A stretch of DNA of 63,169 nt, the filler included, from Licmophora abbreviata (lineage: Eukaryota), in assembly GCA_900291995.1 (NCBI GenBank). It is 21 parts of 21 records of this genome, joined end to end, with 100 filler letters (N's around TTAATTAATTAA, not from the genome) between each part and the next. Parts side by side here need not be neighbours in the genome. Positions count along the whole stretch, not along the records: positions 38,497 to 42,144 come from OLMU01006325.1; positions 42,245 to 44,545 come from OLMU01006326.1; positions 44,646 to 50,346 come from OLMU01006327.1; positions 50,447 to 56,088 come from OLMU01006328.1; positions 56,189 to 59,666 come from OLMU01006329.1; positions 59,767 to 61,900 come from OLMU01006330.1; 15 more parts are not named here. One strand, written 5' to 3'. Every line of letters starts with the position of its first letter. Position 1 is the first letter of the stretch. Below, piece after piece: positions 38,397-61,523 of this stretch. The notes below the pieces were generated by a model. That model did no database searches. It saw only the letters and a list, made by a program, of their open reading frames with translations, and was not told where the DNA came from. A program made the position numbers and the translations under genes.

Positions 38397-38496
38397 NNNN
38401 NNNNNNNNNNNNNNNNNNNNNNNNNNNNNNNNNNNNNNNNTTAATTAATTAANNNNNNNNNNNNNNNNNNNNNNNNNNNNNNNNNNNNNNNNNNNN

Positions 38497-39753
38497 TTGA
38501 ATCGCTTGGAAAAGGATTTTACTGAGTTGGTGGACGCGTGCGAAGGGCCGTGGAAGCGTTCGTTTGAGCTTACCTCCGAATTGACTGGAGACGGAATTCT
38601 GGCAGGACCGGCTCAGCAGCTCTATGCTCGCTTGGATGAAGCGTTTCAGAACCACCAAGGCAAGTTTGGTCATCCAGTCGGCGAGGGTGTCGCCAGTGGC
38701 CAGGCAAGGATCCCGGGCAAGGTTGAGGCCATGGTGGAGAACTCGTTGGGAATGGCAGATATCAAAGCCGAGATGGAGGAGCTTGCCAAACGAGTTGAGG
38801 AGTCCGAGACAACGATCCGGGATCTACAGGCCACGAACTCCCTTTTGTTGGAGCGGGTCAATTCCCAAGGGATTGCGTTCGGCGATTCATTCTTCTTGGG
38901 TTCTCTTGCGGAGGCTCAGTCGTGGGTAACTCTGCATGTCCCGAATTTGGAACGTCGGTTCTTTTACGATATCGTCTCCTTCATGACTCCAGTACAGAAC
39001 CTCAATCGGAACGAGTCGGACGTACTCGACGAAGAATTCAAGTCCAAGCGGGCGGATCTGGACAAGCTCACCGCCTCTTTCAGCATCGTCTTCCCTGCAT
39101 GCTTCGGGATCAAGGGTACTCCGGGGGAGCCCAACTTGCCTGCTCTGCCGAATCACGAAGCCTGGGATTCACCCGGTCGTCAGGAAGGTCTGCTACACCG
39201 GCTCCGGTCGCACTCGAGCCGCTTCAGGTCCTCCACGTTGCAGTCGATCCGGGCAACCTTCCAGGGTAAAGGGGGCGTCAAAGCGCGGGATCTTGCCGAG
39301 GAAATGGTTCGACAGACGATCGAATTTTTCGACGATATGGCGCAGTTTATCGATCAGTTCTATCGCGAATTGATCGATGTTGACTCGGTCTCGAGCAAGG
39401 ACGCTTGGGATCTGGTGGCGCACATCATCAGGGAAATCTTCAAGAAGCTGGGCACGCTTCGCTCGGTGGGAGTGGATGCCAAGGACGCAGGGTTGAGCAA
39501 GGCGGCTCGGTGCTCCATGGTCTTGTGGGGAGCCCTGTCTGCGCACCAATACATGAAAAGTTTGCGATCGTGTGAGTTCAGAGGTCACCCAGATCTTGCA
39601 CCGGCCATTCTTCTTCATGTGGTCCAGAAGAAGGCATCGTGTCAGAGGGTGGAAGCTGTGGCTCACCAGATGACCAGCTTGAAGAAAGAATTGACCAGCT
39701 GTCGGGGCGTTGCTGACCAGGCCTTGTCGGCCGCCACGAAGACCAAGAAGTGA
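38497..39753 (+). CDS. gag-like ORF1 (coiled-coil plus helical domain), 5'-truncated
   Basis: 418 open codons from the contig start to TGA 39751-39753, directly upstream of and in frame with pol. Confidence 0.7.
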   Translation: MNRLEKDFTELVDACEGPWKRSFELTSELTGDGILAGPAQQLYARLDEAFQNHQGKFGHPVGEGVASGQARIPGKVEAMVENSLGMADIKAEMEELAKRVEESETTIRDLQATNSLLLERVNSQGIAFGDSFFLGSLAEAQSWVTLHVPNLERRFFYDIVSFMTPVQNLNRNESDVLDEEFKSKRADLDKLTASFSIVFPACFGIKGTPGEPNLPALPNHEAWDSPGRQEGLLHRLRSHSSRFRSSTLQSIRATFQGKGGVKARDLAEEMVRQTIEFFDDMAQFIDQFYRELIDVDSVSSKDAWDLVAHIIREIFKKLGTLRSVGVDAKDAGLSKAARCSMVLWGALSAHQYMKSLRSCEFRGHPDLAPAILLHVVQKKASCQRVEAVAHQMTSLKKELTSCRGVADQALSAATKTKK

Positions 39754-42700
39754 CGGGGACGTCAGGTCGTCCCTCTCACATCGGACCTGGAACCTGACAT
39801 TTCCGGTGACGTGAGTCCGGTGTCGGGTTCGGAGACGAGGAAGAATCCAGACTACGCGCGCGATGGTGTTGAATCCGGAATGATTGTTGATGTGGAGCCG
39901 ATTGGGAAGATGGGGGTTTACGCCCGACGCTTCCCGTGGTCGGCCTTGCTTAACTTGAGACTGCGTGCGAGTCTGGCGTGGGTTCTTCTTGAAGAACCGT
40001 GTCTTCGGGAGGAAGTGACGAGGGCGGTGGAAGATCACGTGGAGGTGATAGTTGGAAGGGCAGGGGAGTTGGACCGCTTGCTGAGCCAGGACCCAGTGAG
40101 CATTCTAATTGTGGAAGATCACGATGCTTCACACGTGATCGAATCGACGGTGACCAACAGTCGATCCCTGCATTGCGTACTGTCGTTTCGAGGGTCAAGA
40201 AGAGCGAAGAAGTGGCTGCCAGGATGGGACTCGTTTGGAATGCGGGTGCGACACGCCGACGTTGGAGGGGTTACTGACGGGTCCTGGGAGACTCGGGTAT
40301 GGATAATGCGTTCGGCTAAGACGAGGAAGGCAGAGTCGAGTGTGACCGCACCACCGATTCCAGCTCGAAGGCCCTCTCAAGACTTGCGTTCGATCTTGAA
40401 GTTTGGCCTCGAGGGTCGCAGGTGCAAACCTCCTTGTGGAGCCACGCCGTTGGGGTCGAGTCAAGTCGAGTGGGGACCAGGTGGGAGACGGACAGTGTGG
40501 AGCTGGGGACTGTGGCCCGTGTGGTCCAGAGCGTCGTTGATCCGAGTCCAACACTTTGGTAGCTCATGGATAGAAAGACCGTTTTCTTTGTCAGAGCGTT
40601 TGCTTTCTATGGACGTCCCGGAGTCTCTTTTCTTAGGGGCCTCAGAAGAGTCCCGAAGTTTACTGCTGAGTTCGATCAAGGTTCCACAGAAGATACGGCA
40701 GAGTGTGTTCGAATCCATCTCAGAGTGGGTGTGGGGTTCGAGACGTACTGCTCTCGGGAAGCGAAAAACGTACTCGGAGTCTCAGGAGTCATTACCCTTG
40801 CTCCAACGGCGGCAGAAGACTCCCAGGCTGTCCCCCCCGGCGGTGGACCGTCCGATGAAAGGGGTGGCGAGTACAAAGGAGGTCCCAGACAGAGGGGAGG
40901 GCACGATCCAAGAGCGGACCGCGGTGTGCGATGGCGCGGGAAACCGGGATCAATGTCCACCCAGTGATTGTGACCTTAAGTCACTCCCTGAACACGATCG
41001 AAACGCTAAGGCCGTCAAGCACGACAAAGCTCCCGTCCCGGTTTGGCTGTGGGACGACAAGTTGGCAGAAGGACTGTCCACCAAGGTCCGGGAGCGGAAT
41101 CATGTGGGAGCGCGAGATGCGCTTCGGGGGTGGCTCTTGTCCGCGTGGAGGCGACGGATCCTCAAGTCGTACTTTGCCTGGAGGAAGAGTGTTTCTCCGG
41201 TGGAGGATTCGGAGAGGAAGAAGAACGACGAGGCCGCTCGGGATGTCATTCGGAGGGCTGCTGGCGCTTCTTGGTGGGGATGGGATGCAGGCTCTCGTCC
41301 CATATTTTGGAGGTGGCCTTCAGCGTACATGACTACTATACGCGATGGTCTTTCATTGTGGCTTCAGAGCTCTCTCAAGCCGTGGACCAAGCGGCAGCGA
41401 CTCCCGGCGAGTCGAGACACCCTGACCAAGGTGGTCGAGAAGCTGAAGACCGTCCGCGAAAGAGGATATGTCGAATCGGGCGAAGTGGTTTCTCTCATCT
41501 CCTTTTTTGACGTGCCGAAAGGAGAGCAGGACATCCGCATGGTGTACGACGGGACGAAGAGCGGGTTAAATGCGGCACTGTGGGCACCTTGGTTTCCTCT
41601 CCCCACTGTTCAGTCGATGCTCCGGGCCCTGGAGCCTGGGACGTTTCAGGCGGACAACGATGTGGGAGAGATGTTCTTGAATTTCATGCTGGATGAGAAA
41701 ATCCGAAGGCTGTGCGGGATTGACATTACGAAGTTCTTCCCAGGGGAAACGTTTTCCACCGCTGAAGTCTTGTGGGAACGCTGGTGTCGATGCGCCATGG
41801 GACTTCGACCGTCACCATATCAGGCAGTGCAAGGAATGCTATGGGCAGAGGTTTCTATTCTGGGCAACCGTTGGGACCTCGATATTGTTTTCCGTTGGAG
41901 TCGAGTTCGCCTTAACTTGCCAGGCAGTGAGACCTACGATCCTCGGAAGCCGTGGGTCTCTAAGGTTAGGGAAGACGACACTTTGGCCGCCGATTATTTT
42001 ACTTTTGTGGACGATCAGCGGACCACAGCTCCCTCCGACTGGGACGCGTGGCTAGCCTCTCAGCGGGTATCTTCTGTACTGGGTTGGTTAGGGATTCAGG
42101 ACGCCCCCAGAAAGCGGAGAGGTGGGTCCCTTGAACCTGGTGCCNNNNNNNNNNNNNNNNNNNNNNNNNNNNNNNNNNNNNNNNNNNNTTAATTAATTAA
42201 NNNNNNNNNNNNNNNNNNNNNNNNNNNNNNNNNNNNNNNNNNNNGTTCGTCTTCGACGCTTGGAGATGCGTGGGGACTTCGTCCTTCGTTTGGTACACGT
42301 CTCCGGAACTCGGATGATCGCTCAAGGAACAGATGGGTTGTCCCGAGGTGACCATGGGGCGGGGGTGATGGCGGGAAAGCCCTTTTCTACGTACATTCCA
42401 CTTCACCTGTCGGCCTTGGATCGATCTCCCGAATTGGATACCTGGGTCAGGTCCTGGTCGGGTGAGGACCTGATGGTGCTGAGTAGTGAGCAGTGGTTTG
42501 AGCCTCTCCCGGCGCGGGGAAAGCATTTGTGGTTGCCCGCCCCAGGAGCGGCTTCTGTGGCTGTGGAGCGCATGGCTCGCTCTATTCATAGAGACGCCTC
42601 GTCGCTACATATTTTCGTGGTGCCCAGACTCATGACGGCGTGGTGGCGGAAGACTCTTCAAAAGGCGGCGGACCTCGTCTTTTCAATTCCTTGTACCGGC

Positions 42701-44276: not shown

Positions 44277-44677
44277 CTTCAAGGGAACGACCCCGACATC
44301 GTATCCCTTGGAGACATTCCAGAGATCAAGAGCTCAACTCGGTTGGGGATCAGGGGGGGGTTATTACGCACCGACAGCCAGCCCAAACCTTCCAGGTATC
44401 GGCTACTGCGCCGATAGATTCAGGGACCAGGCAGCGGAGCAGAGTAGTCGTCGACACTGCGTGGCTGCAGTGTTGATACTTGGATTAGGAGAGCGGCAAA
44501 GGTGTGGAGGCACGCCGCTTCTCCTGGGCCCTCTTTTACAGAGGGNNNNNNNNNNNNNNNNNNNNNNNNNNNNNNNNNNNNNNNNNNNNTTAATTAATTA
44601 ANNNNNNNNNNNNNNNNNNNNNNNNNNNNNNNNNNNNNNNNNNNNACTCCCTCTGACAGTGGCGATTGTAACGTATG

Positions 44678-47600
44678 TTACCACTTCAGAAGTGCCTGTC
44701 GATGTTTAAGAAACAAGTTCTGCGGTAGTGGCTTGGTGAACATGTCTGCAATTTGTTCTGCAGTATCGATAGGGTAAATGCTAATCAATCCTTTCCTCAC
44801 GTAGTCCTTGAAGTGATGATAGATAAGGTTGATGTGTTTGGTGCGTGGTCGCATCTTGGGTAGTCTTGCTAGTTCTAGCGCTCCAGAGTTGTCTTCAAAT
44901 GCCTTGCAATGGACCGTCGTAGTTGTTGAAAGGATGTCGTGTCCGTATTTGCGAAGTTCTTTGACGAGTTCCATTAGAGGAATCGCGTTGCGTAGACTCT
45001 CTGATAGACTAATATATTCAGCTTCGGTAGTGCTGAGAGCAATCTGCGTTTGTAGTCTTGATGCCCAGAGTATAGGACAACCAGCGTAGGTAATGGTAAA
45101 TCCTGATCGTGATTTGGCTGTGCTGGAATCATTCGGTGCGGTAGTTCTATTCCAGTTTCCTGCGAAGTCAGCGTCCGCATAAACTTCTAGGCTTTTGTGC
45201 TTGCTAGGGTCGATGATCAGTCCTTGGTCGCGCGTGTCGCGCAGATACTTGCAAAGCCAAGTGATTGCTTCACCATGTGATTTCTTGGGGTCTTCACAAA
45301 ATCTGGCGATCTGGTGTGTCGCGTAGGAGATGTCTGGTCTGACGCTCTTCTCTAGGAAGTTGAGCTTGCCTACGACTCCGCGGTAGTGGAATCTGTTGTC
45401 GAAGCTGGGTTCACTGTTTGAGCGGTGCAGAATTTTGACTGCTGATGGCGTTTGTTTTCCTGTTGATCGCTTCGGCAAGTTGACCATGTCGATGATCTGA
45501 TCGATGAGATGCGGTTGCGTTAGCTTGAGTCGTCCGTCTTGGAGTGTCTCTACATTGACGCCGAGGTAGTCTTCGATCGTCCCTTGATCGTCTACATCAC
45601 AGCCTTGTCGTTTGATGTCGTTGATGGCTTTGTCGATGTCATTGCTGTCAGGTCCGGCGAAAATTCCATCATCAACGTATACGACGAAGATAACGTTGTC
45701 TCGGTAGTAGAGGCATTCGTCAATCTCGCTTTGAATGAAACCAATCTTCGTGAGGATGGTGTGTAGATGCTGGTTCCAGACTCTTCCTGCAGATCGATTG
45801 CCGTAAAGGTTCTTGAGGAGCTTGAGAACGTGAGTTTTACCGTTCCCATACTTTGTTTCGATGCCGTGGGGCAACTCCATGTAATGTTCGAACTCAATGT
45901 CGGCCTGTGGGTATGCTAAGACGAAGTCAATCTGTCTCGTGTGCCACTTGTGGAGGATCGAGAGGATCAGGATGCATCGAATGGTCATCCATGTAACGAC
46001 AGGTGCGTACGTCTCGAAGTAGTTGACTGCGAACTCTTGTTTGCCTCCGTGAAGGTTCAGGCGTGCTTTGTGCTTGTAAACCTGTCTCGTTTTGATGTCT
46101 CGTTTGCGTTTCATAGACCAGACGGCTGGGAGCACCTTTACGTCTGCAGGTACGTCCTCTCGTTTGACTAGTATCCAATGCTTTCTTTCGATGTGGTCGT
46201 TCACCTCTTTGACTGCTGCTTCGATGAATTGTTCTCGGTCAGGTTCACGCATGGCTTGATGAAAGTACATGGTGTCTTGATTGTTGGCAGTCATGAAAGA
46301 TACTGGTTCGAGCATTTGGTCTTGAATACGATAGTCTTCTTCATGCATGGCTTCGTAGTACTCGTCGTGAGCTTGATAAGAAACGAGGCCTGCTTGTCTT
46401 TGCGCTTGACTTTCACTCATCCTGTTCGTTTGTCGTACGGTTCTTCCTGATCGCGTTGTCACTGGCTGGTCGATGGGAGTAAGCTCTGTGGGCGGCTCTT
46501 CCATAGCTACGTCTGTAGTTCCTTGAGGATTGTCAGGTATTGTTTCCGTCACGGGGATGTGTGGTTTGTCGCTTTGAGGATCTCTGTCTTGAGACTCCCT
46601 CTGATCGTGTGATCTTCTCTCTTCGTGTCCGTCGAATATGTTGATACGGTCGGATTTCAGGTTTGGTTTGATGCCTGAGAGCGTCTGCCACTGTGAGAAT
46701 GTCTTCGGATTGCCTGCTGTAGGTCGGACTGTTTCAAAGAAGTCGTCGTATTGTAAGTGAAACTGTGGTGATACGAGTCCTGTTTCGAGATTCAAGACTA
46801 ACGAAACTGTGCCTGCGTGTCTTGTCGATGGACCGAGGTTGATACCAAGGCGTGAGCGTGAGTCCCACTTGGGAATTGCCTTGTTTCCTTGCAGCGAATT
46901 GTTGAGTGCAAATACTGGGCAACCGAAGGTGTGATGTGCCTTTAGATTTGGGGCGACTTCGACGGATGAGAATCTTTCGAGCGCGGAGCTTCCGTCGGAT
47001 TTGTCTGGCAGTTGGTTGCGTATCTCGTTCGAGTATCGCAATGCGCTTGGCCAGAGCTGTAGTTCAATGGCGGATGGCCATCGGGCTTTCGAGTGTAGCA
47101 AGTTCTTTCTCGCTTGTTCTTGGAGATCTCGTATTCGCTTTTCGGCTATCCCGTTTTGGAAATGTGCGTTGACTCCGCAGAAGGATATCGTCTGTCCTTG
47201 TAATTCGATGTCTCGCAGGTAAGCGTTGTCTGCGAAGCGCCCGTTGTCCGCGTGATAATGTCGAACTCTGACATGATGTCGCCTTGCGTATGCTTCGAAA
47301 GCATGCTTGGCTTGCAGAGTTTCTTCGGATGATAGAGACTTTTGCATGTGTACGTAACTCAGGCCGCTGAAGTGATCCACGAAAACGGTTGCCGCGGAGT
47401 ATCGAGCCTTGGTGAGTCTTCCTTTGAGTTGTGGTACAAATCCCGGTGTCGTGCTGATGAGCTGATCAACTGAGACACATTCGCCGGGGCGTTCGACTTT
47501 GATGATTTGTCGTTTATTTTCTTTTCCTTTCGTCCTCCATGGGCGTTTGGTCATGGCTCCATACATGCAGGATGCACACTTTGGCGTCTGTACTCGTGAT

Positions 47601-48838
47601 AACCGTCGAGGTAGAATGTTGAGTGCTGCCAGGAGTTGTATGTGTTTGAAGGATCGATGGCCGAGTCGGTAGTGCCATCTGAGAAGTTCGGCTTGGTCGT
47701 TAGTTGCCGATACTTGTTCGTCGGTTGGAATCAAGTGTGTTGGTTCTGGGACCTGAGTGCGGACTGAAGAGTGCGTGAGATCTTTCAAGTTTTCCTCGTA
47801 TTCGTCGATCGGTTGGAAGATAAGAGGGTCCGTTTCTCTGCCAGGTAATTCGGTAGTTTCCTGGTGGTGAGCTGTTTCGTCGCTATCCGGTGGAATAATG
47901 TGGGTCTCGTATGCTATGTGTTCGTGGGTCTCCACGTCGTTTGCTGAGTCGATGACGGCGGCATAGACTCGATAGTCGATAGCATCGGTGGCTGAGTAAA
48001 AGCGAGCTGTGTTTGTTGCTGGGTCCCAAGGTATCGTTCGTTTGTATTTTCTTTGATCCCATATGAGCTCACACTTGTCGGCGTAGTTTATGCTCAGCGT
48101 ACCGTCCACGGTAGGGTAATTGTCGTTTGCTTGCTTGCTCCATTGTTGAGGACATAGTAAGCAGATTGGTGATTCTGGTACGTATAATACGTTGTGTATT
48201 TGTATCGTGTGTACACGTCCATTGTCGTCTTCTAACCTCCATTTTACCGTTCCTGTTCCTTGGACGTTGACGACGTTTCCTCCAAATCCGCGGACTTGCA
48301 TGTCGCAGGATCGTATTGGCCCTTGGAAGTGTCGCTTGTTGTTGGAGATTGTCCTTGATGAGTGATTGTCAACTCCAATCAGAAAGGAATCGGTGTCGAA
48401 TCGGCAGATCGTTGGTCGGTTGAAGATGTTGTTCGACTTGTTGGTTGCGCCTTCGGTAGAGTTATACGCAACGTAGTTTGCTCGGTGAGTGACGGTGTAT
48501 CGCATTCGTTTGAAAGCAATGCGTCTTGGAGTTCGTTTGCTCCTGTTGGTTATGTATCGTTTGCAATAACCGGATCGTTTGTTTTGTTTGTATGGTTTTG
48601 GTTTCTTTTTCAACAGTTGTTCAATCGGAATATTGGAGGTGATCCAGTCTCCCAATGTCATTATTGCTGAAAACATGCGCAATGGTAGTTCGAAACCGGC
48701 GAGTGCGGCTATTCCCATGGTGATCACGATGGGAGCGGTAGCCTTAGCCACGATCGCTATTAGAAATGCTGCCATGAAGAGCGTCACCGCAAGGCTTGTC
48801 GCTTGCATCGTCTGGGCGAACACTCTCGTCAGCAGTAG
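44678..48838 (-). CDS. Copia C pol (intact), in frame with gag behind a single UGA
   Basis: Protease IGVDNHSS; WHYRLGH..CASC; integrase VSVDQ, HADNG, QNGIAE; RT YVDD; RNase H YADADFAG, STTEAEY, EDNSGA, ADMFTK. Confidence 0.95.
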   Translation of the reverse strand, partial: LLLTRVFAQTMQATSLAVTLFMAAFLIAIVAKATAPIVITMGIAALAGFELPLRMFSAIMTLGDWITSNIPIEQLLKKKPKPYKQNKRSGYCKRYITNRSKRTPRRIAFKRMRYTVTHRANYVAYNSTEGATNKSNNIFNRPTICRFDTDSFLIGVDNHSSRTISNNKRHFQGPIRSCDMQVRGFGGNVVNVQGTGTVKWRLEDDNGRVHTIQIHNVLYVPESPICLLCPQQWSKQANDNYPTVDGTLSINYADKCELIWDQRKYKRTIPWDPATNTARFYSATDAIDYRVYAAVIDSANDVETHEHIAYETHIIPPDSDETAHHQETTELPGRETDPLIFQPIDEYEENLKDLTHSSVRTQVPEPTHLIPTDEQVSATNDQAELLRWHYRLGHRSFKHIQLLAALNILPRRLSRVQTPKCASCMYGAMTKRPWRTKGKENKRQIIKVERPGECVSVDQLISTTPGFVPQLKGRLTKARYSAATVFVDHFSGLSYVHMQKSLSSEETLQAKHAFEAYARRHHVRVRHYHADNGRFADNAYLRDIELQGQTISFCGVNAHFQNGIAEKRIRDLQEQARKNLLHSKARWPSAIELQLWPSALRYSNEIRNQLPDKSDGSSALERFSSVEVAPNLKAHHTFGCPVFALNNSLQGNKAIPKWDSRSRLGINLGPSTRHAGTVSLVLNLETGLVSPQFHLQYDDFFETVRPTAGNPKTFSQWQTLSGIKPNLKSDRINIFDGHEERRSHDQRESQDRDPQSDKPHIPVTETIPDNPQGTTDVAMEEPPTELTPIDQPVTTRSGRTVRQTNRMSESQAQRQAGLVSYQAHDEYYEAMHEEDYRIQDQMLEPVSFMTANNQDTMYFHQAMREPDREQFIEAAVKEVNDHIERKHWILVKREDVPADVKVLPAVWSMKRKRDIKTRQVYKHKARLNLHGGKQEFAVNYFETYAPVVTWMTIRCILILSILHKWHTRQIDFVLAYPQADIEFEHYMELPHGIETKYGNGKTHVLKLLKNLYGNRSAGRVWNQHLHTILTKIGFIQSEIDECLYYRDNVIFVVYVDDGIFAGPDSNDIDKAINDIKRQGCDVDDQGTIEDYLGVNVETLQDGRLKLTQPHLIDQIIDMVNLPKRSTGKQTPSAVKILHRSNSEPSFDNRFHYRGVVGKLNFLEKSVRPDISYATHQIARFCEDPKKSHGEAITWLCKYLRDTRDQGLIIDPSKHKSLEVYADADFAGNWNRTTAPNDSSTAKSRSGFTITYAGCPILWASRLQTQIALSTTEAEYISLSESLRNAIPLMELVKELRKYGHDILSTTTTVHCKAFEDNSGALELARLPKMRPRTKHINLIYHHFKDYVRKGLISIYPIDTAEQIADMFTKPLPQNLFLKHRQALLKW

Positions 48839-50327: not shown

Positions 50328-51235
50328 CTTTGCGCAGAGGAAGCGTNNNNNNNNNNNNNNNNNNNNNNNNNNNNNNNNNNNNNNNNNNNNTTAATTAATT
50401 AANNNNNNNNNNNNNNNNNNNNNNNNNNNNNNNNNNNNNNNNNNNNAGTTTATCAGACCCAAACGTTAGGGATTAGTGAATGACCCTCGTTTTGGAAAAG
50501 AGAAGACCAGGGACGCGTTGCGCCTGGCAGGTGATTTCCTTCTTGTTGTTAGACGCGGTGATCGAAGCGCGTTCTACACGGTGGGGTTGCACGACGGTTA
50601 TGATAGCGGTGTAACGGAGCGACGCCTAACGTCCTGTTTCGATCCAGGAAAGTGGTTACTCGATAGGAAGATCCCTGGTGATCTCATCGGGTGTCTGCGG
50701 GATGCATAGGGTTCAAGTTTACGGGGACTTTCCCGCCAAACATGTGATGGTTCGCCAAGATTTGATGGCGCGGTTCGCATGGGAAATGACTGTGCATCCT
50801 GATGGCTCGGCCGCCGTCATGGTCATGGACCATGGCGACCGGCAGGGCAGGGCAAAGCAGCGCCGATCGCATGTCTGTTCGTCACACTACGTTGCAGCAG
50901 GAACACGTCGGTAGCGCGTGGCAATTGCGATTGTTGAAGCTGTCAGCAGCGCGATTTGCTGAGTTGTCGATGTATGAGCATCGGTCATTACCATTGAGTT
51001 TCCATTCCCTACGTCATACTGCTTTCATTGTCCCAGAGTGACCGGGAGGTCTATCTGTTTTCTTAGGAAGTCATTGAGATGCTTCATGATCCTGTGCTTA
51101 CGTTTTCATGCTTGCGTTGTATGCCACATCATTTGTGTTTGTGCGTGGCCATTTCCGAACTTGTTTGTTGTCTCACTTTTCTGGACTTTGTGATCGAGAA
51201 TCGTTGATTTGTTTTCAAGTTATCCACAAGCAACC

Positions 51236-52708
51236 ATGGCTGAAGCTATTACCTTTCGTAACGCGTTGACTCGTTGTGGCATCTTGCAGGGTGCCGCGTT
51301 GGATGTATTCCCTGAGCAGGGATTCACCAACATGGCGGAGTTCTCGCAGCTGACTGAGACCGAGATTGAGAGCTTCGTTCGTGCGGTGAACAAGATGCCG
51401 GTCGCGAGGATCCCTTTCGGATCGATCAAGAAGTTGAAGGCGATGCGTAACTGGGCGATCGAGAAGAATCGATTCGGGTTGCCGATCGACCATAACGAGT
51501 TCACCGGCGACGAGCTCAGTCGCATGGTCGTCAGGTTGGACTTTGAAGTTCATCTCGCGGTCAACAAACCGAAGACGCCCGACTTGCCGGAAAAGTTCGT
51601 TTCTTTCGGAACCAAGTGGCGGGCTTTCAGCGAAGGGTTCTCCGGCCATTGTAACGTGGCTCGCGGTTGTATGAACATCCCGCTTTCGTATGTGTTGCGT
51701 GATCATGTCGTTGTCACCGATGAGATTCGTGCGGTGGTGTATGGCACTTCGGATGCGCGTTTGATGGATTGTGTTCGTCTTGAAGGTGACGAGTTTGATC
51801 AAGACAACAATCGTGTGTGGGATTTGTTGCGCCCTTTGGTTTATGACACCGCGGCGTGGAACTACGTGAAGCAGTATGACAAGACAAAAGACGGACGCAA
51901 GGCTTTCCGTGCCTTGGTTCTTCGTGGGGATGGAGAGGCCGCGAAGGAAGCGCGTCGCGCTCGTGCGGAAGACATCATTGCGAAGGCATCGTTCACGGGT
52001 TCCAGTAAGCGTTTCACTTTGCAGTCGTACATCAACATTCTTCAGGGCGCGTTTACCGAGTTGGCTGAGTGTGGAGAGGAGGAAGAGTATTCGGAGAGGA
52101 AGAAGGTGTCCGTGTTCTTGAAAGGTCTTGTCGCCGATCGTTTCAAGGTGACGCGCCAGTTGATCTTGCAGAACCCGACCCTTCGTGATGACTTTCAGAA
52201 GGCTTATGCATTCTGCGAAACGGCGAATCAACTCAACCAACCTTTAGGCTCAGGCTCGGATGCGGTGGGTGGCCGGAACGTGTCGGAGATGGAGCGCTCC
52301 TCGGGCAAGGGAAAGGGCAAGGCTAGTCGTTACCTGCCTAAAGAGGAGTGGTTTGCTTTGTCGAAGAAAGAACGTGGGGCTATCATCGCAGCGCGTAAGA
52401 CCGGAAAGACTGGAGGTGGATCGGGTGCTTCGAGCGGGGATGGTAGTAAGCCGAAGGTCCATTCGTCCAAGCGCAAGCTTGCCGAGTTAGCTTCGACTGT
52501 CGCCAAGATGCTCGATGGATCGGAAACTGGCGGAACTGAGGCTTCCACTGATGGCTCAAAGGATGATGGTGGAAACAGCAGTAAGAAAACGGCAGGGACA
52601 GGTACGCAGGATGGCAATCCCGCAAATCAGTTCGGCCGCAACGTGCACGCGGTGATGCGCAAGTTTGCGAACGCCGTGCAGGAAGAGTTGGGCGGGAATA
52701 ACGAATGA
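51236..52708 (+). CDS. Copia A gag
   Basis: ATG in ACCATGG context; IPLSYVLR, DNNRVWDLL, KDGRKAF, KKVSVFLKGL and ANQFGR are all paralleled in Copia B gag. Confidence 0.85.
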   Translation: MAEAITFRNALTRCGILQGAALDVFPEQGFTNMAEFSQLTETEIESFVRAVNKMPVARIPFGSIKKLKAMRNWAIEKNRFGLPIDHNEFTGDELSRMVVRLDFEVHLAVNKPKTPDLPEKFVSFGTKWRAFSEGFSGHCNVARGCMNIPLSYVLRDHVVVTDEIRAVVYGTSDARLMDCVRLEGDEFDQDNNRVWDLLRPLVYDTAAWNYVKQYDKTKDGRKAFRALVLRGDGEAAKEARRARAEDIIAKASFTGSSKRFTLQSYINILQGAFTELAECGEEEEYSERKKVSVFLKGLVADRFKVTRQLILQNPTLRDDFQKAYAFCETANQLNQPLGSGSDAVGGRNVSEMERSSGKGKGKASRYLPKEEWFALSKKERGAIIAARKTGKTGGGSGASSGDGSKPKVHSSKRKLAELASTVAKMLDGSETGGTEASTDGSKDDGGNSSKKTAGTGTQDGNPANQFGRNVHAVMRKFANAVQEELGGNNE

Positions 52709-55700
52709 CCCGCGGCAGCTTTGTCTCGTACGCCACAGAAACGTGTGTCGTTCTCTGTTGCGCGTGGGGACACGGTATTTTACATACAAGAGTTGAACGG
52801 ATCGAGTCCGGCCCAGCGGTTCGAACTGGACTCGCATGCCGATACAACTGTTGGCGGAAGTAATTGTGTGTGTCTTGCCACTACAGGCGAAACAGTAACA
52901 GTCCATTCGTTCTCGAGCGAAAGGAAGCCTTTCTCGGAGATCCCTGTCGCGTCGGTTGCGACATCTTGGGTGGATCCCCGAACAGGAGAGACGATCGTGT
53001 TGGTATTTCATGAGGCTCTTTATTTTGGTGATCGGCTCGATCACTCACTTATTTGTCCCAATCAACTGCGTTCGTTCGGCGTCACTGTTGCTGACACTCC
53101 CCGTCAGTTTGATTCTTCGTCCTCTCACTCCATTCACAGACGTGATGCAGAGGTTGACGTAGAGATTCCTTTAGAATTGGATGGTGTGATCTCTGGTTTT
53201 GTCTGCCACCGCCCTACCACAGAGGAGTTGGAAACTTGTCGGCGCGTTGCTTTGACAAGCGATGCCTCTTGGGACCCCAAGGACGTTAATTTTGCGGCCC
53301 AGGAAGATGCTGTTCATCATCGATCAATCTCTGGAGTTCTCCAGAACGGGGACAGATCTCATATTATGGAGCCTCCTGAGTTGCTAGATGAAAACACGTT
53401 TGGAGCGAGGCTGGTTTCCGCCGTTAATGTTGCATCAGATGATTTGAGTGGGGATGGGATGTCGGGCTACAGTGATAGAGACTTGTTCTTACGATCCGAG
53501 GAACGGCGACAGTTGTCGGCTTTGTCTTCAAACGACAAACGGTCGGTGGTAACGAAGGAGGTCTTGGCTAGGAGATGGGGGATTGGTATGGGCACGGCTC
53601 ACCGAACCCTGCGCGTGACGACTCAGCGGGGGGTGAGGACTTTCTTGCACCCGACGGATCGGCGCGTTAGAACCATCCAGCCGCACCTCGTATTTCCCAC
53701 GATGCGGGGAAAGAAGATGTACACCGATACGATGTTTGCGAAGGCGAGGTCGGTACGGTCTTATACGTGTGCCCAGGATTGGTCGGATGGAAACGGGTTC
53801 ACCCTGCTTTATCCGATGAAGAGCAAGGCCGAGGCACCGACTACCATTTCCAGGATGATTCATGATTTGCAAGGGATACCGGAGGTGATCGTGAGTGACG
53901 GCGCAAGGGAGGAGACCAGTGACCAAGTGGAAGTCGGAGGTTCGGCTCTTTAGGGCCAAGTCTCATGTGACAGAGCCTTACTCACAGTGGCAGAACAGGG
54001 CGGAGGCAGACATCAACCAGGTAAAGCGTGGGATCAAACGTGCAACTAAACAGAGTGGCTCACCCAAGCGTTTATGGTGTTTCTGCGGCGAATGGGTTGC
54101 GGCGATTCGGCGGAAGACGGCCCATGACTTCGCAGCTCTCGATGGATTGACTCCGGAGGAGGCGATCTTTGCTCGGCAGGTTGATATTTCGGCGTATGTA
54201 CAGTTTGACTGGTACGAGCCGGTGTGGTACATCGACCCGGCGGAAGGGGCTGCGGAGTCACGTCGGAAGCTTGGTCGTTGGATCGGAGTCGCAGAACACC
54301 AGGGTGCGCCGATGACGTACATGATCCTACCGAAGTCGTGTATTCCGATTGCTCGGAGTTCGGTGTTCCCGGTGAACGGGGACGAACAGATGTCTGATGA
54401 GTATCGAAGAGAGTTGGAGTCGCTTGACAATGCCATCCGGCAGCGGATTGGAGATGACGTCGGCGACGAGGATGTCGATTTCGAGATCGACGGAATCCCT
54501 GAGATACCAGACGACTTGTTCGAAGAATCGGTCGGCGCTAATTGGGAGCCGGCTGACGGTGAAGAGCGGATGCCCGAGGCGGATGAACAATATTCTCCTG
54601 AGTCGTTTGATCAGTACCTGACCGCGTCGGTAATGATGGACAGGGGAGGGGAGCTCATGCGGGGCACTGTGAAGGGCAGGAAGCGGGACGTAGAGGGGAA
54701 TCCGGTCGGGAGATCAAACAGCAACCCTCTTCTCGATAGTCGAGAGTACGAGGTAGAGTTCCCGGACGGCTCGCTCGACGTATTCACCGCTAACACTATT
54801 GCCGAAGCTCTGTATTCACAGGTGGACGAAGAGGGGCGGCATTATGCCGTCCTCTCCGAGATCATCGACCATAGGAAGGACGGGAATGCGCTTGCCGCCG
54901 ACGACGCGTTCATCGAAGGCACGCATCACCGTCGAAGGACCACCAAGGGTTGGCAGCTTCTTGTCAATTGGAAGGATGGGACCTCCGATTGGCTGCCTCT
55001 GGCAGAGATCAAGGAGTCCTACCCGGTCCAAGTCGCGGAGTACGCCGTGAACAACAAGGTTGCGTCTGAGCCCGCCTTTGCATGGTGGGTCCCGCACGTC
55101 TTAAGGAAGCGCGACCGTATCATCAAGAAGGTGAAGTCGCGTTACTGGAAACGTACCCACAAGTTCGGAATCGAGGTCCCCAAGACAATACAGGAAGCAT
55201 TCAATATAGACCGCTCTACCGGTACGGACTTCTGGAGGAAGGCCTACGAGAAGGAGATGCGGAATATCAAGATTGCTTTTGACGTTCGGGAGGATGGCAA
55301 GGTTCCGGTGGGCTACAAGGAGATTAGGTGTCACTTGATATTCGATATCAAGTCGGATACTTTTGATCGCAAGGTCAGGTTCGTGGCCGGTGGTCACTTA
55401 ACCGACCCACCTAAGGAATCGACTTACTCGAGCGTTGTCTCAAGGGACAGCGTTCGGCTGTTCTTTCTCATTGCCGCACTGAACGACCTGGATGTGCTCT
55501 CGTGTGATGTGCAGAATGCTTACATTAACGCAGAGACGAAGGAGAGGGTTTGGTTCAGGGGCGGGGACGAGATGGGACCGAATAAGGGCAAGGTGATCGT
55601 GATCGTGCGAGCGCTCTACGGTTTAAAATCGTCAGGAGCTTGCTTCCGGCGGCTGATGGCATCGACGCTTCAGAGTCTCGGGTTTTCTAGTTGCAAGGCT

Positions 55701-56088
55701 GACCCCGATTTGTGGATGCGGAAGGCGATGAAGCCGGATGGGACCAAAGTGTATGAATATGTACTCTGCTATGTAGATGACCTGATCTTTCAGGGTTTGA
55801 AGCCCGACGATTTCATGGGTCTGCTGCGGAAGAAAGGATTCACTCTCAAGGATGGTTCTGTCAAGGTGCCGGACCGTTATCTTGGGGCCGACATTGCGAT
55901 GAAAGAGCTGGCCGATGGAAGTAAGGCGTGGTCTTTGTCGTCGGATACGTATGTGAAGCGAGCCGTTGCGGAAGTCGAGCGTGAGCTCGAGAAGGTAGGG
56001 CAGCAGCTCAAGAAGAAGGTTCGATCTCCGTTGGCGTCTGGGTATCGACCTGAGTTGGACAGTACGCCGGAGCTCGATGAGAAACGCG
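52709..56088 (+). CDS. Copia A pol (protease, integrase, RT), one frameshift near 53920
   Basis: ELDSHADT; YTDTMF, VSDGA, QNRAE; RT DVQNAY, ALYGLKSSG, YVDD. The frame changes between EETSD and KWKSEV, inside the integrase core. Confidence 0.9.
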
Positions 56089-56410
56089 NNNNNNNNNNNN
56101 NNNNNNNNNNNNNNNNNNNNNNNNNNNNNNNNTTAATTAATTAANNNNNNNNNNNNNNNNNNNNNNNNNNNNNNNNNNNNNNNNNNNNGTCCCCGCGAGC
56201 CAGTAACATAACATGATGCTGGTTCGTCCAGCTAACCTTTGTCTCTCAGAGGCCGGATCTCCTATTCTTCGTGGTTCCAGTCACTTGCTGTCACTCCACG
56301 CGTTCTTTTCTTGGGGTTTAGGTTCAACATCGGCAACGACGCCTAATCCTCAGGTCCGATTCCATTTTGGAAACGGTTGTGTGCTGATAGCTAGTCCCCA
56401 TTTTGGGTAA

Positions 56411-59400
56411 TCACCATAACACCTGCCCGATTAACTCTCGTAACCGTGGACCGGGCAATAACTTGGTCAACAAGTCCGCAATATTGTACTTGCCTTCCTC
56501 CCATGCGATACGTACGATACCTGCAGCTTGTGCTTCGCGCGTTCGATGGTAGGCAATTGCATTGTGTTTCTTCTTCAATGTTGATTCTGGGTGAGTCGAA
56601 TTCTTGAACACCGATTCGTTGTCACAAAAGACATTCGTTGCTCCATCAACAGGTATCCCCATCATCCGAAGCTTGTACCTCAATGCTTCAATCTGTTCAA
56701 TGGCAGTCTTCATAGCCACAAATTCGCTACCAAACGTACTCGATTCCACGGTGTTCTGCCGCTTCGAGTACCAGATGATTGGCGCGCGCATCAGGAAAAG
56801 AATGATGCCTGTGTGTGAACGTCTCGTCACACGACAACCTGCATGGTCTGCATCGACGAAGCAAGTCGTCGTGACTGATGCTCCACGTAACTCGGGTGCC
56901 TTTGGTGGGGTCGGCTCATGCGCCCCTGGATAGTACTCTCCCCAGTCGCTCTTAGTAAAACGGGACTCGTCGAAAGTTGGCTCTGTCTCATCGAATACCA
57001 ATTTCGATCTTCCGTAGGCCTTAAGATAAGCGAAGATATGAAGTACCTCTTCCAAATGACCAACGCGTGGTTCAGCCAAGTGTCTAGATAGCAGCGCCAC
57101 GGCAACGTGGATGTCAATCCGGCCGAGCTCCACAATCCATCGTAGGACACCGATCAGTCCCTGGAAATAGTTAGCGCGTCGTGCGTCGAGAGTCCTGGAC
57201 ATGTCAATCTCAGGACGGTAACCAGCACTGAGGGGCGTTTTGACTTTCGTCTTGAGGAATTTCCCCGCCTGACTAAGCTCCCGCTCGACATCGGCGATTG
57301 CTCTCTTCACATATAGGTCAGACGACATCGCCCATCGTTTCTTGGTTGGATTCTCTGCGCCTGGGATCTCGACCTTCGAGATCTCCGAACCGAGATAAGC
57401 ATCCGGTTCCTTTACACTTCCCTTCTTCAGGGTGTAGTGTGCCGACAAGTGATCGAGGATGGCTCTTGGGTCGTGTGATACGGCAAGGATATCATCGACG
57501 TACACAAGCACATACTCCCAATATTTCGTACCGTCGGTCTTGGTATTGGGCCGCATCCAAACGTCCGGGTCTGCAAGGCAGCTCTCAAAGCCAGCCTCTC
57601 GTAACGTTGCTGCCATGTGGTCCCTCCAACGAGCTCCGCTGGACTTCAGCCCGTAAAGGGCACGTACTATGAATGCTGGTCTCCCCTGTCTCGCTTTCCC
57701 GAACTCTGGTCCAGCGACAGTGTAACAACGCTCCTTCGTCGGCGCGTTGAGATACGCATTCTGTACGTCAGCAGAGAGAATGTCAAGATCGTTGAGTGCG
57801 GCGATTGTAAAAGCGATCCGCACACTGTCACGTGACACAACACTCGAATACGTCGACTCCTTCGGCGGATCCGTCTCGTGTCCTCCTGCTACAAAACGGG
57901 CTTTTCGGGTTAGGTCCATTTTCACATCAAAAATGAGGTGGCACGAGATCCGCTTGTATCCGATCGGCACGTCGTCGCCTTCACGGAACTCGAATGCGGG
58001 ATCAACGTTCATCATCTCCTTCTCTATGGCCTGTTTCCAGAAGTCAGTCCCCGTTTTCGCATCAACCTCCAATGCTGTTCTACCGTCTTCGGTAGCTCAA
58101 TCCCAAATTTGTGAGAACGAGCCCAGTACCGCGATTTGACTTTCTTCACGATCCGATCACGTCGCCGCAAAACCGTACGAGTCCACCAAGCAAAGGCCGG
58201 CTCTTCCGATATCTTGTTGGCAACCGCGTACTCTGCGACTTCGACCGGGTTCGACTCCTTGAGGTCTTTCAGCGGTATCCAGGATGACGAGCCGTCTTTC
58301 CATTCGACGAGTAGGTCCCAACCAACTGTGGTAATGCGCCGACGGCGCGTGCCATTGGCTGAGGTAATCCATCCGTCGTCGATCGGTACTGCTGTCGGCC
58401 CTTTCCTGTGATCCACGATGTCAGAAATAATCTCATAAACACGGCCCTCATCGTCGACCTGCGCCCACATGTTCGCTGCGATCTGATTTGCCGTGAACGC
58501 TTCAGTAGAACCGTCTGGGAACTCCACGTCGTACATTCGGCTATCTAACATTGGGTTGTTGTGACGGGTGCCAATCGGCATGCCGTCAATGTCTCGTTTT
58601 CGGCCGATAACTTTCGCCGACAAGCTTTCGCCACCGTGTGGTAGCATGACGTTCATCGTCAAGTATTCATCCAGTGCCTCTGGGGTGGTTTCGTCAGCTT
58701 CTGGCTTTGCTGACTCCGGGTCGAATGGTTCGAGGGTCGCTTCATCGCCCTCAAATAGATCGTCTGGTGGTGGTGGCATTTGTTCGGCTAGTTCTGCCGG
58801 CACATCGTCATCCGCCACTTCATCGCCCAAACGCGATCTAATCCCATCGTCGAGTACCGTCAAGTCTGCCATGATAGCTGGGTCCTTCATCTCATCCTGA
58901 GAAAGGGACCATACGGACTTCCGCACCTTAACCCTGCCAGTCTCTGTCAGGATCACGTTGGCGGCTTCATCCGTGTAGTTCTCCGCGATCCCCAGCCATC
59001 TTCCAATCTTCTTGCGTTGGAAAGGGAAGGAATCGACAGGATCATAGTAATAACAATACTGGTAAAAGTCGAACATCGCATATACAGAGATGTCTGGTGT
59101 TGATCCCAGAACATGCTCCGTCGGCGATCGGCCCTCGAGTGCCGCGATGTCCAATGCTGTGAGGCGACGAATCGCCGTCACCCACTGTGCTGCATAGCAC
59201 CAAGTCCTGCGCGGTCCTCCTGACCGCCGCATCGTTCGTCGTACTCCTTTCTTCAACTCCCGAATCGACGATTCAGCTAGGTTCTGCCATGGGCTGTACG
59301 GGAGAGAGATATTGTGCTCAATCCGGTACTCCTGCATGGTCGACCGAGCTCTACCCGCGATTTCCTCCATCGCGCCGTCCGTCACAAGGGTCTTGGGCAC

Positions 59401-60011
59401 ACCGACGTCGTGGATCAACGACATGAGGGTGTCCGGCGCTTCCGACTTTCGTTTCCAAGGATAGAAATAATCGAATCCGGCCCCATTCGTGTATACCGAC
59501 CCACCGGTGTATCCCCTAATCGATTTCACTTTCGAGAACATCTCATCGGCATACATCCGACCGCTCATTGAAGGGAATTTCATCCAGGGTCCCCGGCTCC
59601 GAACACGACGTTCGGCTGGGACGAGAACATTCCTAATCCCTTGCTGGGTCGTTACTCTGAGCGTCTNNNNNNNNNNNNNNNNNNNNNNNNNNNNNNNNNN
59701 NNNNNNNNNNTTAATTAATTAANNNNNNNNNNNNNNNNNNNNNNNNNNNNNNNNNNNNNNNNNNNNCCGGCAACAAAGGTGTCGGCATGGCTGTCAAGTT
59801 CGCAATAGTGAATCGTCTCCTCCTGCGGACCATGGGCAGTGGAGAGGTTAGACAAGATACGAATGGTGCAGAGGTGACGTCCTCTTGGGGAACGACAGAA
59901 GTGAGTTGGCCCGGGCTTTGGGTGGTGTTGTGCTAACGTAAGACTAGTAACGTTAGCGCTATCGTTCATCGATAGCTCGTTACAACACGTAGTCAAACCC
60001 GGCGCGGCTTG
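56411..60011 (-). CDS. Copia B pol, one frameshift near 58077, gap 59667-59766
   Basis: YADEMF, VTDGA, QNLAE; YVDD; FVDADHAG, SSTFGSEF, CDNESV, NIADLLTK. A 1-nt loss separates PKTVEQ from ALEVD. Confidence 0.92.
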
Positions 60012-61523
60012 TCATTCCTGCTGGCGTTCTTGGCCTCCCTGTCCGTACTTCGGAACGGACCTCTTGTGAGCGAGTCGTCCGAACTGACTAGCAGCCGACG
60101 CTCCTCCCGACTCTTTTGATGAGTCTATGTCGGTACTGAAAGTAACCGACCCAACCGTTCGCGACTTCTTCGACGACGGTTCCTCCTCCGATCCTACCGA
60201 ACTGTTGTCGGTAACGACACGAGCAATCTCCTTAATGAAAGACTTGACCGATTCATCGTCGACGGTCTCTTTCGTTTTGAGCTTCTTCGCCGCCGCACGC
60301 TTCCGTTTGAGCTCCACTTTCTGTTCGGGAGTGAGCTTATGGTAGTCTTTAGAAGAGAGATAGGTAGCCGACGAAAGCGCTTTGTCGTACGAGCCCCCCT
60401 TTCCACCGGCTTTCCCACGTTGTCCTTTGCCCGTTCGAGCGGCACCGACGTTACGGCTGCCTGCCGAATCTGCGGACGCCTGGCTCCTCAAGTTCTCAAG
60501 GACCGTCTTAAGATACTGCTGGCAAGTCTCGAAGCTTGTAAGCTTCGCCTCGTCACCGCTAATGATCTCTTTGGCCGTCTGCAAGCGTGGGTCCTGGATG
60601 CCCTGTAGAAAGTCGGCGACTTTCTTTGTCTCTGCCACCTCTTCCTCAAGGTCAAACAATTCGTTGTGAGCACGCTGATGCTTGGTAACATAGGCATCAT
60701 ACGAGTGTTTGCCCCTTCCCGTGAAACGGGCCACCTTAATCTCCGCGTAGGCCTTGGCTTTCCTGACTGTCTTCGCCGCCGGACCCTCAGCCTGCATCTT
60801 CAATGACAGATAAGCCGCGCGACCGTCCTTAGCACGATTGTGTTGTTTGATGAAGGTCCAGCCTTGTCCCGCAACAACCTTGCTCTTAAGGATCGCATAC
60901 AGCTTCTGGTTGTCGCGCGCGTACTGAGATCCGGTGAGAGTCGTCGTCGCCACCAAGTCTTCGTCGACAGTGGCGTAGTCGGCGGCCCTCATGGCGTCGG
61001 TCACCTCGGTTGAATCGCGGATGAGGTAGGTTAAGGGAACGCTCGTTGCACTTGTGCTGCGAACAGTCGACAGGTAAGTCGACAAACGTTCATCGAACGT
61101 GATCCAATTCTTCATAAAGTCAAGATCAATTGGCGACACTTCGTCGTCGGAATCATCCTTCGACGTCACCAACGTCAGCTGTTCCAACCAACGATCAATT
61201 GCTACAGCATTGAACCCCCCTGGAGCCGCGTTCTGTCCACGGGACACACGATACTCGATCCACATTCGGAAAGCTTTAAGCTTCCTGATTGCCAAGTAGG
61301 GGAAAGTTGGGACCTGCTGTGGGGCGTCACCGGGTGCGACAGCTTGTTGCATCGCCGGTCGATCGCGGCCCATCTGACGGATCAGTTGATCGATCTCCCC
61401 CAGAGGGAGGGAACGGAGGTTTTCGGTACTATCGATACCCTGTTGTTCAAGATACGTTACCGTGGTGGGGTTGAAACCACACCTGTCAAGTGCCGCCCTG
61501 AAGGCGGCCATGTGTGCTGCCAT
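60012..61523 (-). CDS. Copia B gag
   Basis: 503-aa ORF homologous to Copia A gag (VPLTYLIR, DNQKLYAIL, KDGRAAY, KKVADFLQGI, ASQFGR); ends GAA TGA. Confidence 0.88.
   Translation of the reverse strand: MAAHMAAFRAALDRCGFNPTTVTYLEQQGIDSTENLRSLPLGEIDQLIRQMGRDRPAMQQAVAPGDAPQQVPTFPYLAIRKLKAFRMWIEYRVSRGQNAAPGGFNAVAIDRWLEQLTLVTSKDDSDDEVSPIDLDFMKNWITFDERLSTYLSTVRSTSATSVPLTYLIRDSTEVTDAMRAADYATVDEDLVATTTLTGSQYARDNQKLYAILKSKVVAGQGWTFIKQHNRAKDGRAAYLSLKMQAEGPAAKTVRKAKAYAEIKVARFTGRGKHSYDAYVTKHQRAHNELFDLEEEVAETKKVADFLQGIQDPRLQTAKEIISGDEAKLTSFETCQQYLKTVLENLRSQASADSAGSRNVGAARTGKGQRGKAGGKGGSYDKALSSATYLSSKDYHKLTPEQKVELKRKRAAAKKLKTKETVDDESVKSFIKEIARVVTDNSSVGSEEEPSSKKSRTVGSVTFSTDIDSSKESGGASAASQFGRLAHKRSVPKYGQGGQERQQE

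Follow-up and report, generated by a model that had tools for sequence, protein, structure and literature searches.

The window and its four gag-pol junctions

The stretch of DNA analysed here (the window, 63,169 bases of Licmophora abbreviata) consists of 21 short contigs, each 1.2-5.7 kb long, between which lie spacers of 100 bases (N44-TTAATTAATTAA-N44; e.g., 2103-2202 and 38397-38496). It carries four retrotransposons in which gag and pol lie in one reading frame and are separated by a single TGA: Copia A, Copia B, Copia C, and an element with a region resembling a reverse transcriptase (RT), called 'DIRS-like 2' in an earlier note on this DNA and referred to below as the RT-bearing element. 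The comparisons reported in this work suggest that this TGA is probably a conserved and functional 'leaky' stop, most clearly so in the lineage of Copia A and Copia B.

Each element occupies a contig of its own (the RT-bearing element 38497-42144, Copia C 44646-50346, Copia A 50447-56088 and Copia B 59767-61900), so that their physical linkage and common host are an assumption, and the contigs of the window end within or just beyond coding regions. Direct reading of the sequence found all four in-frame TGA-C junctions at the positions and strands, and in the contexts, given in the earlier note, with GAA before the TGA in all three Copia elements. In every case the same frame is long and open on both sides of the one TGA, the stop-to-stop lengths upstream and downstream being 418 and 797 codons in the RT-bearing element, 423 and 1386 in Copia C, 504 and 414 in Copia A, and 513 and 81 (to the contig end) in Copia B. 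A scan of the whole window for adjacent open segments in the same frame, with at least 400 codons upstream and at least 100 downstream, returned only three of these junctions, that of Copia B being cut by the contig end.

The copies in the window are damaged. Private frameshifts interrupt the gag of Copia C, the pol of Copia A and the B-like pol on contig 19, and the activity of these copies is therefore not demonstrable. Such lesions are what one would expect if the four stops were ordinary nonsense mutations of dead copies, fallen by chance near the gag/pol boundary. A single damaged copy proves nothing in this respect, so relatives are needed, and it is their testimony that makes this explanation quite improbable, as described below.

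Copia A and Copia B

The features of these two elements, and of the B-like pol on contig 19, are the following.

51236..52705, + strand: gag of Copia A, with 490 codons when counted from its first ATG; many gag-only homologues end at query positions 490-497
52706..52708, + strand: Copia A in-frame TGA, context GAA TGA CCC, from sequence reading
52709..53950, + strand: first part of Copia A pol, with the protease-like motif ELDSHADT 40 codons past the stop, from sequence and structure model
53895..56088, + strand: second part of Copia A pol, in another frame (private frameshift), with RVT_2 (Pfam E 2.4e-16)
60015..61523, - strand: gag of Copia B, with 503 codons when counted from its first ATG, 26% identical to the gag of Copia A (E 4e-38)
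60012..60014, - strand: Copia B in-frame TGA, context GAA TGA CAA, from sequence reading
59767..60011, - strand: beginning of Copia B pol, open over 81 codons as far as the contig end; an ATG is its codon 15, and ELDSHADT lies at codon 72, from sequence
59915..60011, - strand: strongly structured RNA past the Copia B stop, -33.9 kcal/mol, z -4.14, a value reached by 0 of 200 shuffles
56189..59666, - strand: B-like pol on contig 19, with its own frameshift, 49-58% identical to Copia A pol; RVT_2 E 7e-18

The frame of Copia A pol changes near 53900-53950, where the homologous stretch of contig 19 stays in one frame; the frame change of the contig-19 pol lies near 58050-58080. Copia A carries RVT_2 downstream of a retropepsin-like region, according to Pfam and to a structural search, and the class of Copia B is assigned through homology, that of its gag to the gag of Copia A and that of contig 19 to the pol of Copia A.

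That the region past the Copia A stop is a protease is consistent with the structural comparisons, if weakly so. The model of its first 230 residues has a mean predicted local distance difference test score (pLDDT) of 76. When this protease-region model was compared with the PDB by Foldseek, no entry matched at E<=0.001, although retroviral proteases dominated the list, and in a wide structural search the ten best matches were all retropepsins (XMRV, Ddi1, foamy virus, HTLV, FIV, EIAV, HIV, RSV and others), at Z values of only 3.0-5.0. The protease-like motif of the Copia A/B family, found at 52829 on the + strand, at 59795 on the - strand and in loci L001-L080, reads ELD(S/T)HADT, with H in place of the G of the retropepsin D-S/T-G-A; all 12 of the members aligned share it without variation. 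The earlier note had further held that no ATG precedes the protease motif in either element, which is right for Copia A, where the 40 codons contain none, and wrong for Copia B, with its in-frame ATG 15 codons past the stop.

Relatives of Copia A and Copia B

At the protein level, a gag-W-pol query of 907 residues with the stop at residue 493, built from Copia A and run against 1.84 billion representatives, found 5,744 matches at E<=0.001. Sorting the best 150 of them by BLASTP gave 46 proteins with gag only, including 14 whose projected end falls at query positions 490-497, 92 pol-only proteins, several of these beginning within a few residues of position 494 and a few being called junction-spanning by HMMER, and 11 junction-spanning proteins with 25-34% identity. 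Close relatives thus end gag where Copia A does, and the fused forms are distant ones.

At the DNA level, a metagenome scan with a 12-row alignment of the protease region (ELDSHADT) yielded 493 confirmed relatives, on the best 80 of which gag and pol were placed by tblastn. Gag was found on 63 of the 80 loci. Among these 63 the junction is an in-frame TGA in 41, fused in 10 and a TAA or TAG in five, gag being in another frame in the remaining seven; six of the fused loci are without any stop, and four have stops elsewhere in gag. The base after the TGA is C in 34 of the 41, A in two, G in one and T in one, the other three having a second stop nearby. The 17 loci without a gag match comprise 11 with a TGA upstream of the protease and six that are open to the contig start.

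The distribution of these states on the protease-region tree is simple. The tree has 79 rows, two loci with a protease frame shorter than 80 residues (L043 and L071) being left out, and all 20 scored non-TGA rows, whether fused, TAA/TAG or other-frame, fall within one clade of 27 rows (SH-aLRT 89), among which the seven unscored rows of that clade nest. Outside it, 41 of 41 gag-bearing loci, and Copia A, have the in-frame TGA, so that a single change of state suffices for the whole pattern, and this over branches of 0.4-1.1 changes per site in the TGA-bearing part of the tree. In 24 of the 48 loci with distinct junctions, and across deep clades, the gag motif DQFGR.AH precedes the stop by 11-42 residues, which anchors the stop at the 'same place'. 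Random nonsense mutations, which the earlier note had thought unlikely to hit one boundary repeatedly, are in this lineage refuted by the conserved position and identity of the TGA; the corresponding claim for Copia C and the RT-bearing element is less supported.

The same loci bear on whether UGA is a stop at all. UGA is reassigned in some protists, and a TGA at every junction might suggest a variant code in which it is a sense codon, or else selenocysteine. Both are very improbable here. In 28 of the 48 loci the single TGA is flanked on either side by at least 300 open codons, and the open codons flanking these stops sum to 47,661, with exactly one in-frame TGA per element, so that TGA is no general sense codon. 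TGA also bounds other long frames, both in the window and in the loci; the pol of Copia C ends with TAA, yet other long frames end with TGA. As for selenocysteine, an Rfam scan of the whole window found no family at gathering score, the selenocysteine insertion sequence (SECIS) included, the 3' untranslated regions lying off the contigs.

The position of the Copia A/B stop, its identity as TGA, the shared frame and the UGA-C(U) context are thus conserved across deep branches, a conclusion that the compared DNA sequences support well.

Junction context and RNA structure

The immediate context was examined in 50 distinct junctions (the 48 loci, Copia A and Copia B), against backgrounds taken from the flanking frames; the binomial p-values ignore relatedness and are hence too small, the direction of the bias being clear. 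The base at +4 is C in 41 of the 50, against a background of 0.20 for codon position 1, and 30 have T at +5. In 28 junctions a CTN codon follows the TGA (background 0.045), the most frequent codons there being CTG (13), CTA (8), CTC (5), CAA (5), CGG (3) and CTT (2), and CTAG follows the UGA in eight junctions. The codon before the TGA is GAA in 14 (background 0.035) and NAA in 19. The conservation of the TGA-C among relatives, which the earlier note had proposed to test, is thus borne out in the Copia A/B lineage, in 41 of 41 gag-bearing loci outside the fused clade for the TGA and 41 of 50 junctions for the C.

RNA structure is another matter. The earlier note had attributed pairing potential downstream of the stop to all four elements of the window; in a test with dinucleotide shuffles on the 100 nt from the stop it exceeds chance in Copia B only (z -4.14), the values being -0.95 for the RT-bearing element, -0.85 for Copia C and -0.82 for Copia A. 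A second folding run gave z -4.3 for the downstream stretch of Copia B, which has no relatives close enough for covariation. Across the family, the 100 nt downstream of the stop have a mean z of -1.48, with 16 of 50 below -2, compared with a mean of -0.52 (7 of 50 below -2) for the 100 nt upstream and of -0.45 (0 of 49 below -2) for a control 300 nt further on.

A subfamily of 12 members, which reads UGA CUG GCA C followed by GGGUCAUGGA...UCCAUGACCC, forms a conserved 10-bp hairpin beginning 8 nt past the stop. Covariation of the stems, which the earlier note had proposed to look for, is present here as one compensatory pair (C-G to U-A, in three sequences) besides G-U/G-C changes. In the Copia A clade a consensus structure downstream of the stop was looked for and none was found. 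The structure signal is thus clade-specific, and the stems are for this reason better seen as an add-on, outside the shared design.

Copia C

48842..50110, - strand: Copia C gag, main frame, 423 codons stop to stop; 53 gag-only homologues
49854..50346, - strand: N-terminus of Copia C gag, out of frame with the rest through a frameshift in this copy; motif FALTPGQ..IDY..LKLWNAATE shared with homologues
48839..48841, - strand: Copia C in-frame TGA, context GAA TGA CTA, from sequence reading
44681..48838, - strand: Copia C pol, 1386 codons, ending with TAA; Pfam Pol_BBD, gag_pre-integrs, SH3_retrovirus and RVT_2, in that order

The order of its Pfam domains places Copia C firmly in Ty1/copia. Its gag frameshift, near the N-terminus, was judged against 11 homologues. 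The TGA itself is covered by an identical 204-nt Logan contig (run X3), with 21 nt only on one side, and the contigs of four runs gave short pieces only, mostly identical, which yielded no variation.

Conservation of the stop is here seen at the level of proteins only, and at that level it is supported. The gag has 53 gag-only homologues, 31-65% identical, one of them from an MMETSP transcript, and most of them end at one aligned place, at projected positions 421-431 as against 423 in the window, usually with an E after the motif A-L-x-x-I-x-x-(D/E)-L. That homologues down to 31% identity end together is again difficult to reconcile with mutations of dead copies. A junction-spanning query, which had low power, returned only three pol-only proteins of 1278-1429 residues that start at or upstream of RFDTDSF. 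The gag proteins of Copia C and Copia A, used as single-protein queries, had no match among viral contigs. One genome (G001, contig 1, near 2.36 Mb, loci L083-L086) holds a Copia-C-like relic of gag and pol with several frameshifts, in which the junction is lost; an RVT_2 search of the same genome gave no match, and its controls were likewise silent. Programmed readthrough seems nonetheless likely in Copia C, judging from the common end of its gag homologues.

A separate observation concerns the first ~70 residues of Copia C pol past the stop (window 48400-48838, - strand), which are strikingly hydrophobic (LLLTRVFAQTMQATSLAVTLFMAAFLIAIVAKATAPIVITMGIAALAGF...). A pol-only homologue (P0003) has a similar hydrophobic start; such residues would make up a membrane-like segment ahead of the protease, a puzzling feature in a retrotransposon.

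The RT-bearing element

38497..39750, + strand: open reading frame (ORF) 1, gag-like, 418 codons, its 5' end cut by the contig start; no Pfam above cut-off; homologous to ORF1 of the relative L081 (E 3e-23)
39751..39753, + strand: in-frame TGA, context AAG AAG TGA CGG; L081 has AAG AAG TGA CAT at its ORF1 end
39750..39779, + strand: hairpin whose base includes the UGA (GUGA.GGGGACG...CGUCCCU.UCAC), -18.2 kcal/mol, z -1.82, a value reached by 11 of 200 shuffles
39754..42144, + strand: ORF2, 797 codons to the contig end, with an RT-like C-terminal region (..FVDD..); L081 58% identical over the RT part

The class of this element is less certain than its name in the earlier note would imply. ORF2 has no Pfam match even at E<=10, its feature-neighbour clusters in the Atlas carry RVT_1 or DNA_methylase, at sub-threshold scores (0.84-0.85), and L081 gives RVT_1 at E 0.032, below cut-off. 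The contig, 3.6 kb long, breaks off within the RT; no tyrosine recombinase was found on it, an absence that proves nothing on a truncated contig, and the long frames of the neighbouring contig 16 have no family above cut-off. With no recombinase and no Pfam RT match we do not file the element as DIRS. The RT of Symbiodinium DIRS elements is described as aligning poorly with Pfam (PMC5890265).

Relatives are scarce. A search with the RT part found one locus among genome contigs, L081 (on contig 8 of G001, degraded by frameshifts), and no match among viral contigs; a further ORF1 match in G001 is the L081 locus itself, and a junction-spanning protein query found no spanning protein. The two share AAG AAG TGA C, which argues against chance nonsense mutations, and the frame of L081 stays open for 125 more codons past its ORF1 TGA. 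L081 also has a hairpin at the same place (3634-3668), of different sequence (z -3.46, reached by 1 of 200 shuffles). With the stop in the A site, a hairpin enclosing the UGA would be melted, and it could therefore not act as a classical downstream stimulator. On this single comparison, readthrough in the RT-bearing element is plausible.

Probable readthrough and other possible routes to Pol

Particle assembly needs Gag in excess of Pol, and elements achieve this excess in few known ways. If the stop is leaky, most ribosomes would terminate at the UGA, yielding Gag, and a minority would decode it with a near-cognate tRNA and go on in frame, giving a Gag-Pol fusion that the element's own protease would then cut. 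The leakiness would come mainly from the immediate context, namely the UGA and the C after it, usually as part of CUR, and often GAA or NAA before it, to which some sublineages may have added a hairpin ~8 nt downstream.

From the sequences we infer that the conserved stop would be read through, that this would serve the Gag:Gag-Pol ratio, and that the same might extend to Copia C and the RT-bearing element. For Copia A and Copia B, programmed readthrough is by far the best reading, with strong comparative support. The more general claim of the earlier note is partly supported in its core, i.e., that the stop is programmed and not a random nonsense mutation. It holds at the level of DNA conservation for Copia A and Copia B, at the protein level only for Copia C and through one relative for the RT-bearing element, and is not supported for the shared stems.

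The principal rival holds that the stop does no more than end Gag and that Pol is made by another route. This might be internal initiation, or reinitiation after termination, at an AUG further downstream; it might also be a promoter within the element, or an RNA that is spliced or subgenomic. The relatives offer this rival some footing: an in-frame ATG lies between the stop and the protease motif in 35 of the 48, the 12-member subfamily has a conserved ATG five codons past its stop, and the pol of Copia B and that of Copia C have theirs at codons 15 and 11. A precedent exists in Tca2, a Copia element of Candida albicans with gag-UGA-pol, whose junction alone is reported to be without readthrough in Saccharomyces cerevisiae and to hold a minor internal promoter (PMC2194720). 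Such a route, however, needs no shared frame, yet 41 of 41 gag-bearing loci outside the fused clade keep it, and no in-frame ATG occurs between the stop and the protease motif in 13 of the 48 relatives, nor in Copia A. The stop outside that clade is, moreover, always TGA, with C next in 41 of 50 junctions, a bias that is sensible for leakiness only, and the conserved ATG of the subfamily sits within the stem, so that it may be kept for pairing. Taken together, these points make another route to Pol unlikely.

Readthrough itself has to be held against a number of observations, to which the ATGs just described and the behaviour of Tca2 belong. The 80 loci are those nearest to Copia A, and hence a non-random sample; since their tree is unrooted, a gain and a loss of the stop are indistinguishable. 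The codon after the UGA of Copia A is CCC rather than CUR, its clade lacks a consensus structure past the stop, and the window copies have their private frameshifts. For Copia C, the gag alignment had no match in the viral and genome contig sets, nor the pol alignment among viral contigs. The RT-bearing element is compared with one relative (n=1), a degraded one, whose homology just past the stop is marginal (E 0.058).

Comparison with known systems

The closest parallel is found outside Copia. In the fission-yeast Ty3/gypsy elements Tj1, Tcry1 and Tosmo1-3, the 8-bp sequence GAA TGA CT(A/G) is reported as strictly conserved at the gag-pol junction, and the stop of Tj1 as essential for transposition; the same report cites UGA, an upstream AA, C at +4, CT and CTAG as promoters of readthrough (10.1101/2022.12.06.519325). 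This junction is letter for letter that of Copia C and of several Copia A/B relatives (e.g., L001 and L006), and each family tree, theirs and that studied here, also includes relatives with a single ORF. There are differences. The fission-yeast elements are Ty3/gypsy of fungi and ours Ty1/copia; Tj1 was tested by experiment, whereas the window elements are known from sequence; and the context is looser here (CTN, CAA, CGG or CCC past the stop), with a hairpin in one sublineage.

Within Ty1/copia, besides Tca2, the element VdLTRE5 of Verticillium dahliae has gag-UGA-pol, an organisation described as 'rarely observed' (PMC3441728). Both resemble the elements studied here in class, in the use of UGA and in having gag and pol in one frame (PMC2194720, PMC3441728), and differ in being single fungal elements for which these sources, in the parts available, give no data on family-wide conservation, whereas in the present case the stop and the C(U) are retained throughout a large lineage from the environment. 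The design is accordingly less unusual than the earlier note assumed, given the precedents of fission-yeast gypsy, Tca2 and VdLTRE5. For diatom elements, the main text of the report on the CoDi Ty1/copia elements gives no junction codon, frame or context (PMC2806351). In the limited full-text collection available, no conserved UGA-C(U) junction in a protist Copia and no readthrough in tyrosine-recombinase elements was found.

Murine leukaemia virus (MuLV) likewise has gag and pol in one frame, with a leaky stop that sets a low share of Gag-Pol. Its pseudoknot lies past a spacer of ~8 nt after the stop, and the hairpin ~8 nt downstream in the 12-member subfamily has a MuLV-like spacing. It differs in using UAG, in having a pseudoknot as opposed to a simple hairpin, and in being an animal retrovirus. 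The local signal of the A/B family is also that of the known UGA-C, UGA-CU and UGA-CUAG contexts, which come mostly from alphavirus, plant-virus, fungal peroxisomal and mammalian genes and not from retrotransposon gag-pol junctions. The RT of MuLV is also reported to bind eRF1 (PMC4917968).

The cassette of Copia A/B and of Copia C thus probably belongs to a known class (Tj1, MuLV, Tca2) and was probably reached by convergence, and its match to fission-yeast gypsy speaks for a convergence that reflects some general feature of termination in eukaryotes. It is tempting to go further and to speculate that the cassette (an acidic or AA-ending codon, UGA, C(U)R) arose independently in at least three retrotransposon groups, as a portable, near-universal eukaryotic module which sublineages tune with hairpins, although we regard this as a tentative idea, slightly more apt to be wrong than right. 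The groups in question would be fission-yeast Ty3/gypsy, two unrelated Ty1/copia lineages of aquatic protists, and the RT-bearing, possibly tyrosine-recombinase, element, and the added hairpins would be those 8 nt downstream in the Copia subfamily and around the stop in the RT-bearing element. If this were true, the junction variants found in the environment, several hundred in number, would be a natural library from which to learn the quantitative rules of UGA leakiness.

No new mechanism is revealed by these results. What they would mean is that a large uncultured Copia lineage (493 confirmed stretches in one scan, 5,744 protein representatives) uses the leaky-UGA solution, in an organisation called rare for Copia in the VdLTRE5 report (PMC3441728). 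Pipelines that call such elements 'broken by a stop' would under-call intact and potentially active copies, and the natural variants of the junction are ready-made test sequences for readthrough rules.

Other elements of the window

Not every retroelement here has a stop between gag and pol. A Copia-type element on contig 11 (25619-28948, + strand) has a frame of 1110 codons that runs without a stop into the gag_pre-integrase domain, and is continued on the next contig (29053-31809, + strand) by SH3_retrovirus and RVT_2, i.e., a single-ORF design. On contig 13 (32110-35204, + strand) lies an element resembling a long interspersed nuclear element (LINE), whose ORF1 of 390 codons ends with TAA and overlaps by 64 nt, in the -1 frame, an ORF2 of 662 codons with an Exo_endo_phos endonuclease. 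The leaky-stop design is therefore not universal in the window.

A fifth candidate junction, a 'GAA TGA' on contig 6 (about 15213-15214), was rejected, as the frame downstream, of 1281 codons, differs from the upstream one and its own ATG overlaps the stop. This frame (within 11372-15827, - strand) has no Pfam match, its ATG overlapping the TGA of the upstream frame as GAATGAG, and a second frame of 357 codons is open over the same DNA.

Just before the RT-bearing element, at 37027-38394 (+ strand), a frame of 456 codons without a Pfam match shows a stretch like RNase H (LATDGS...) as well as a cluster of Cys and His at its C-terminus; it belongs to a separate contig and is merely in frame with the next one across the spacer. 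Retroelement pieces occur on nearly every contig of the window, and the GC content of the contigs ranges from 0.46 to 0.60.

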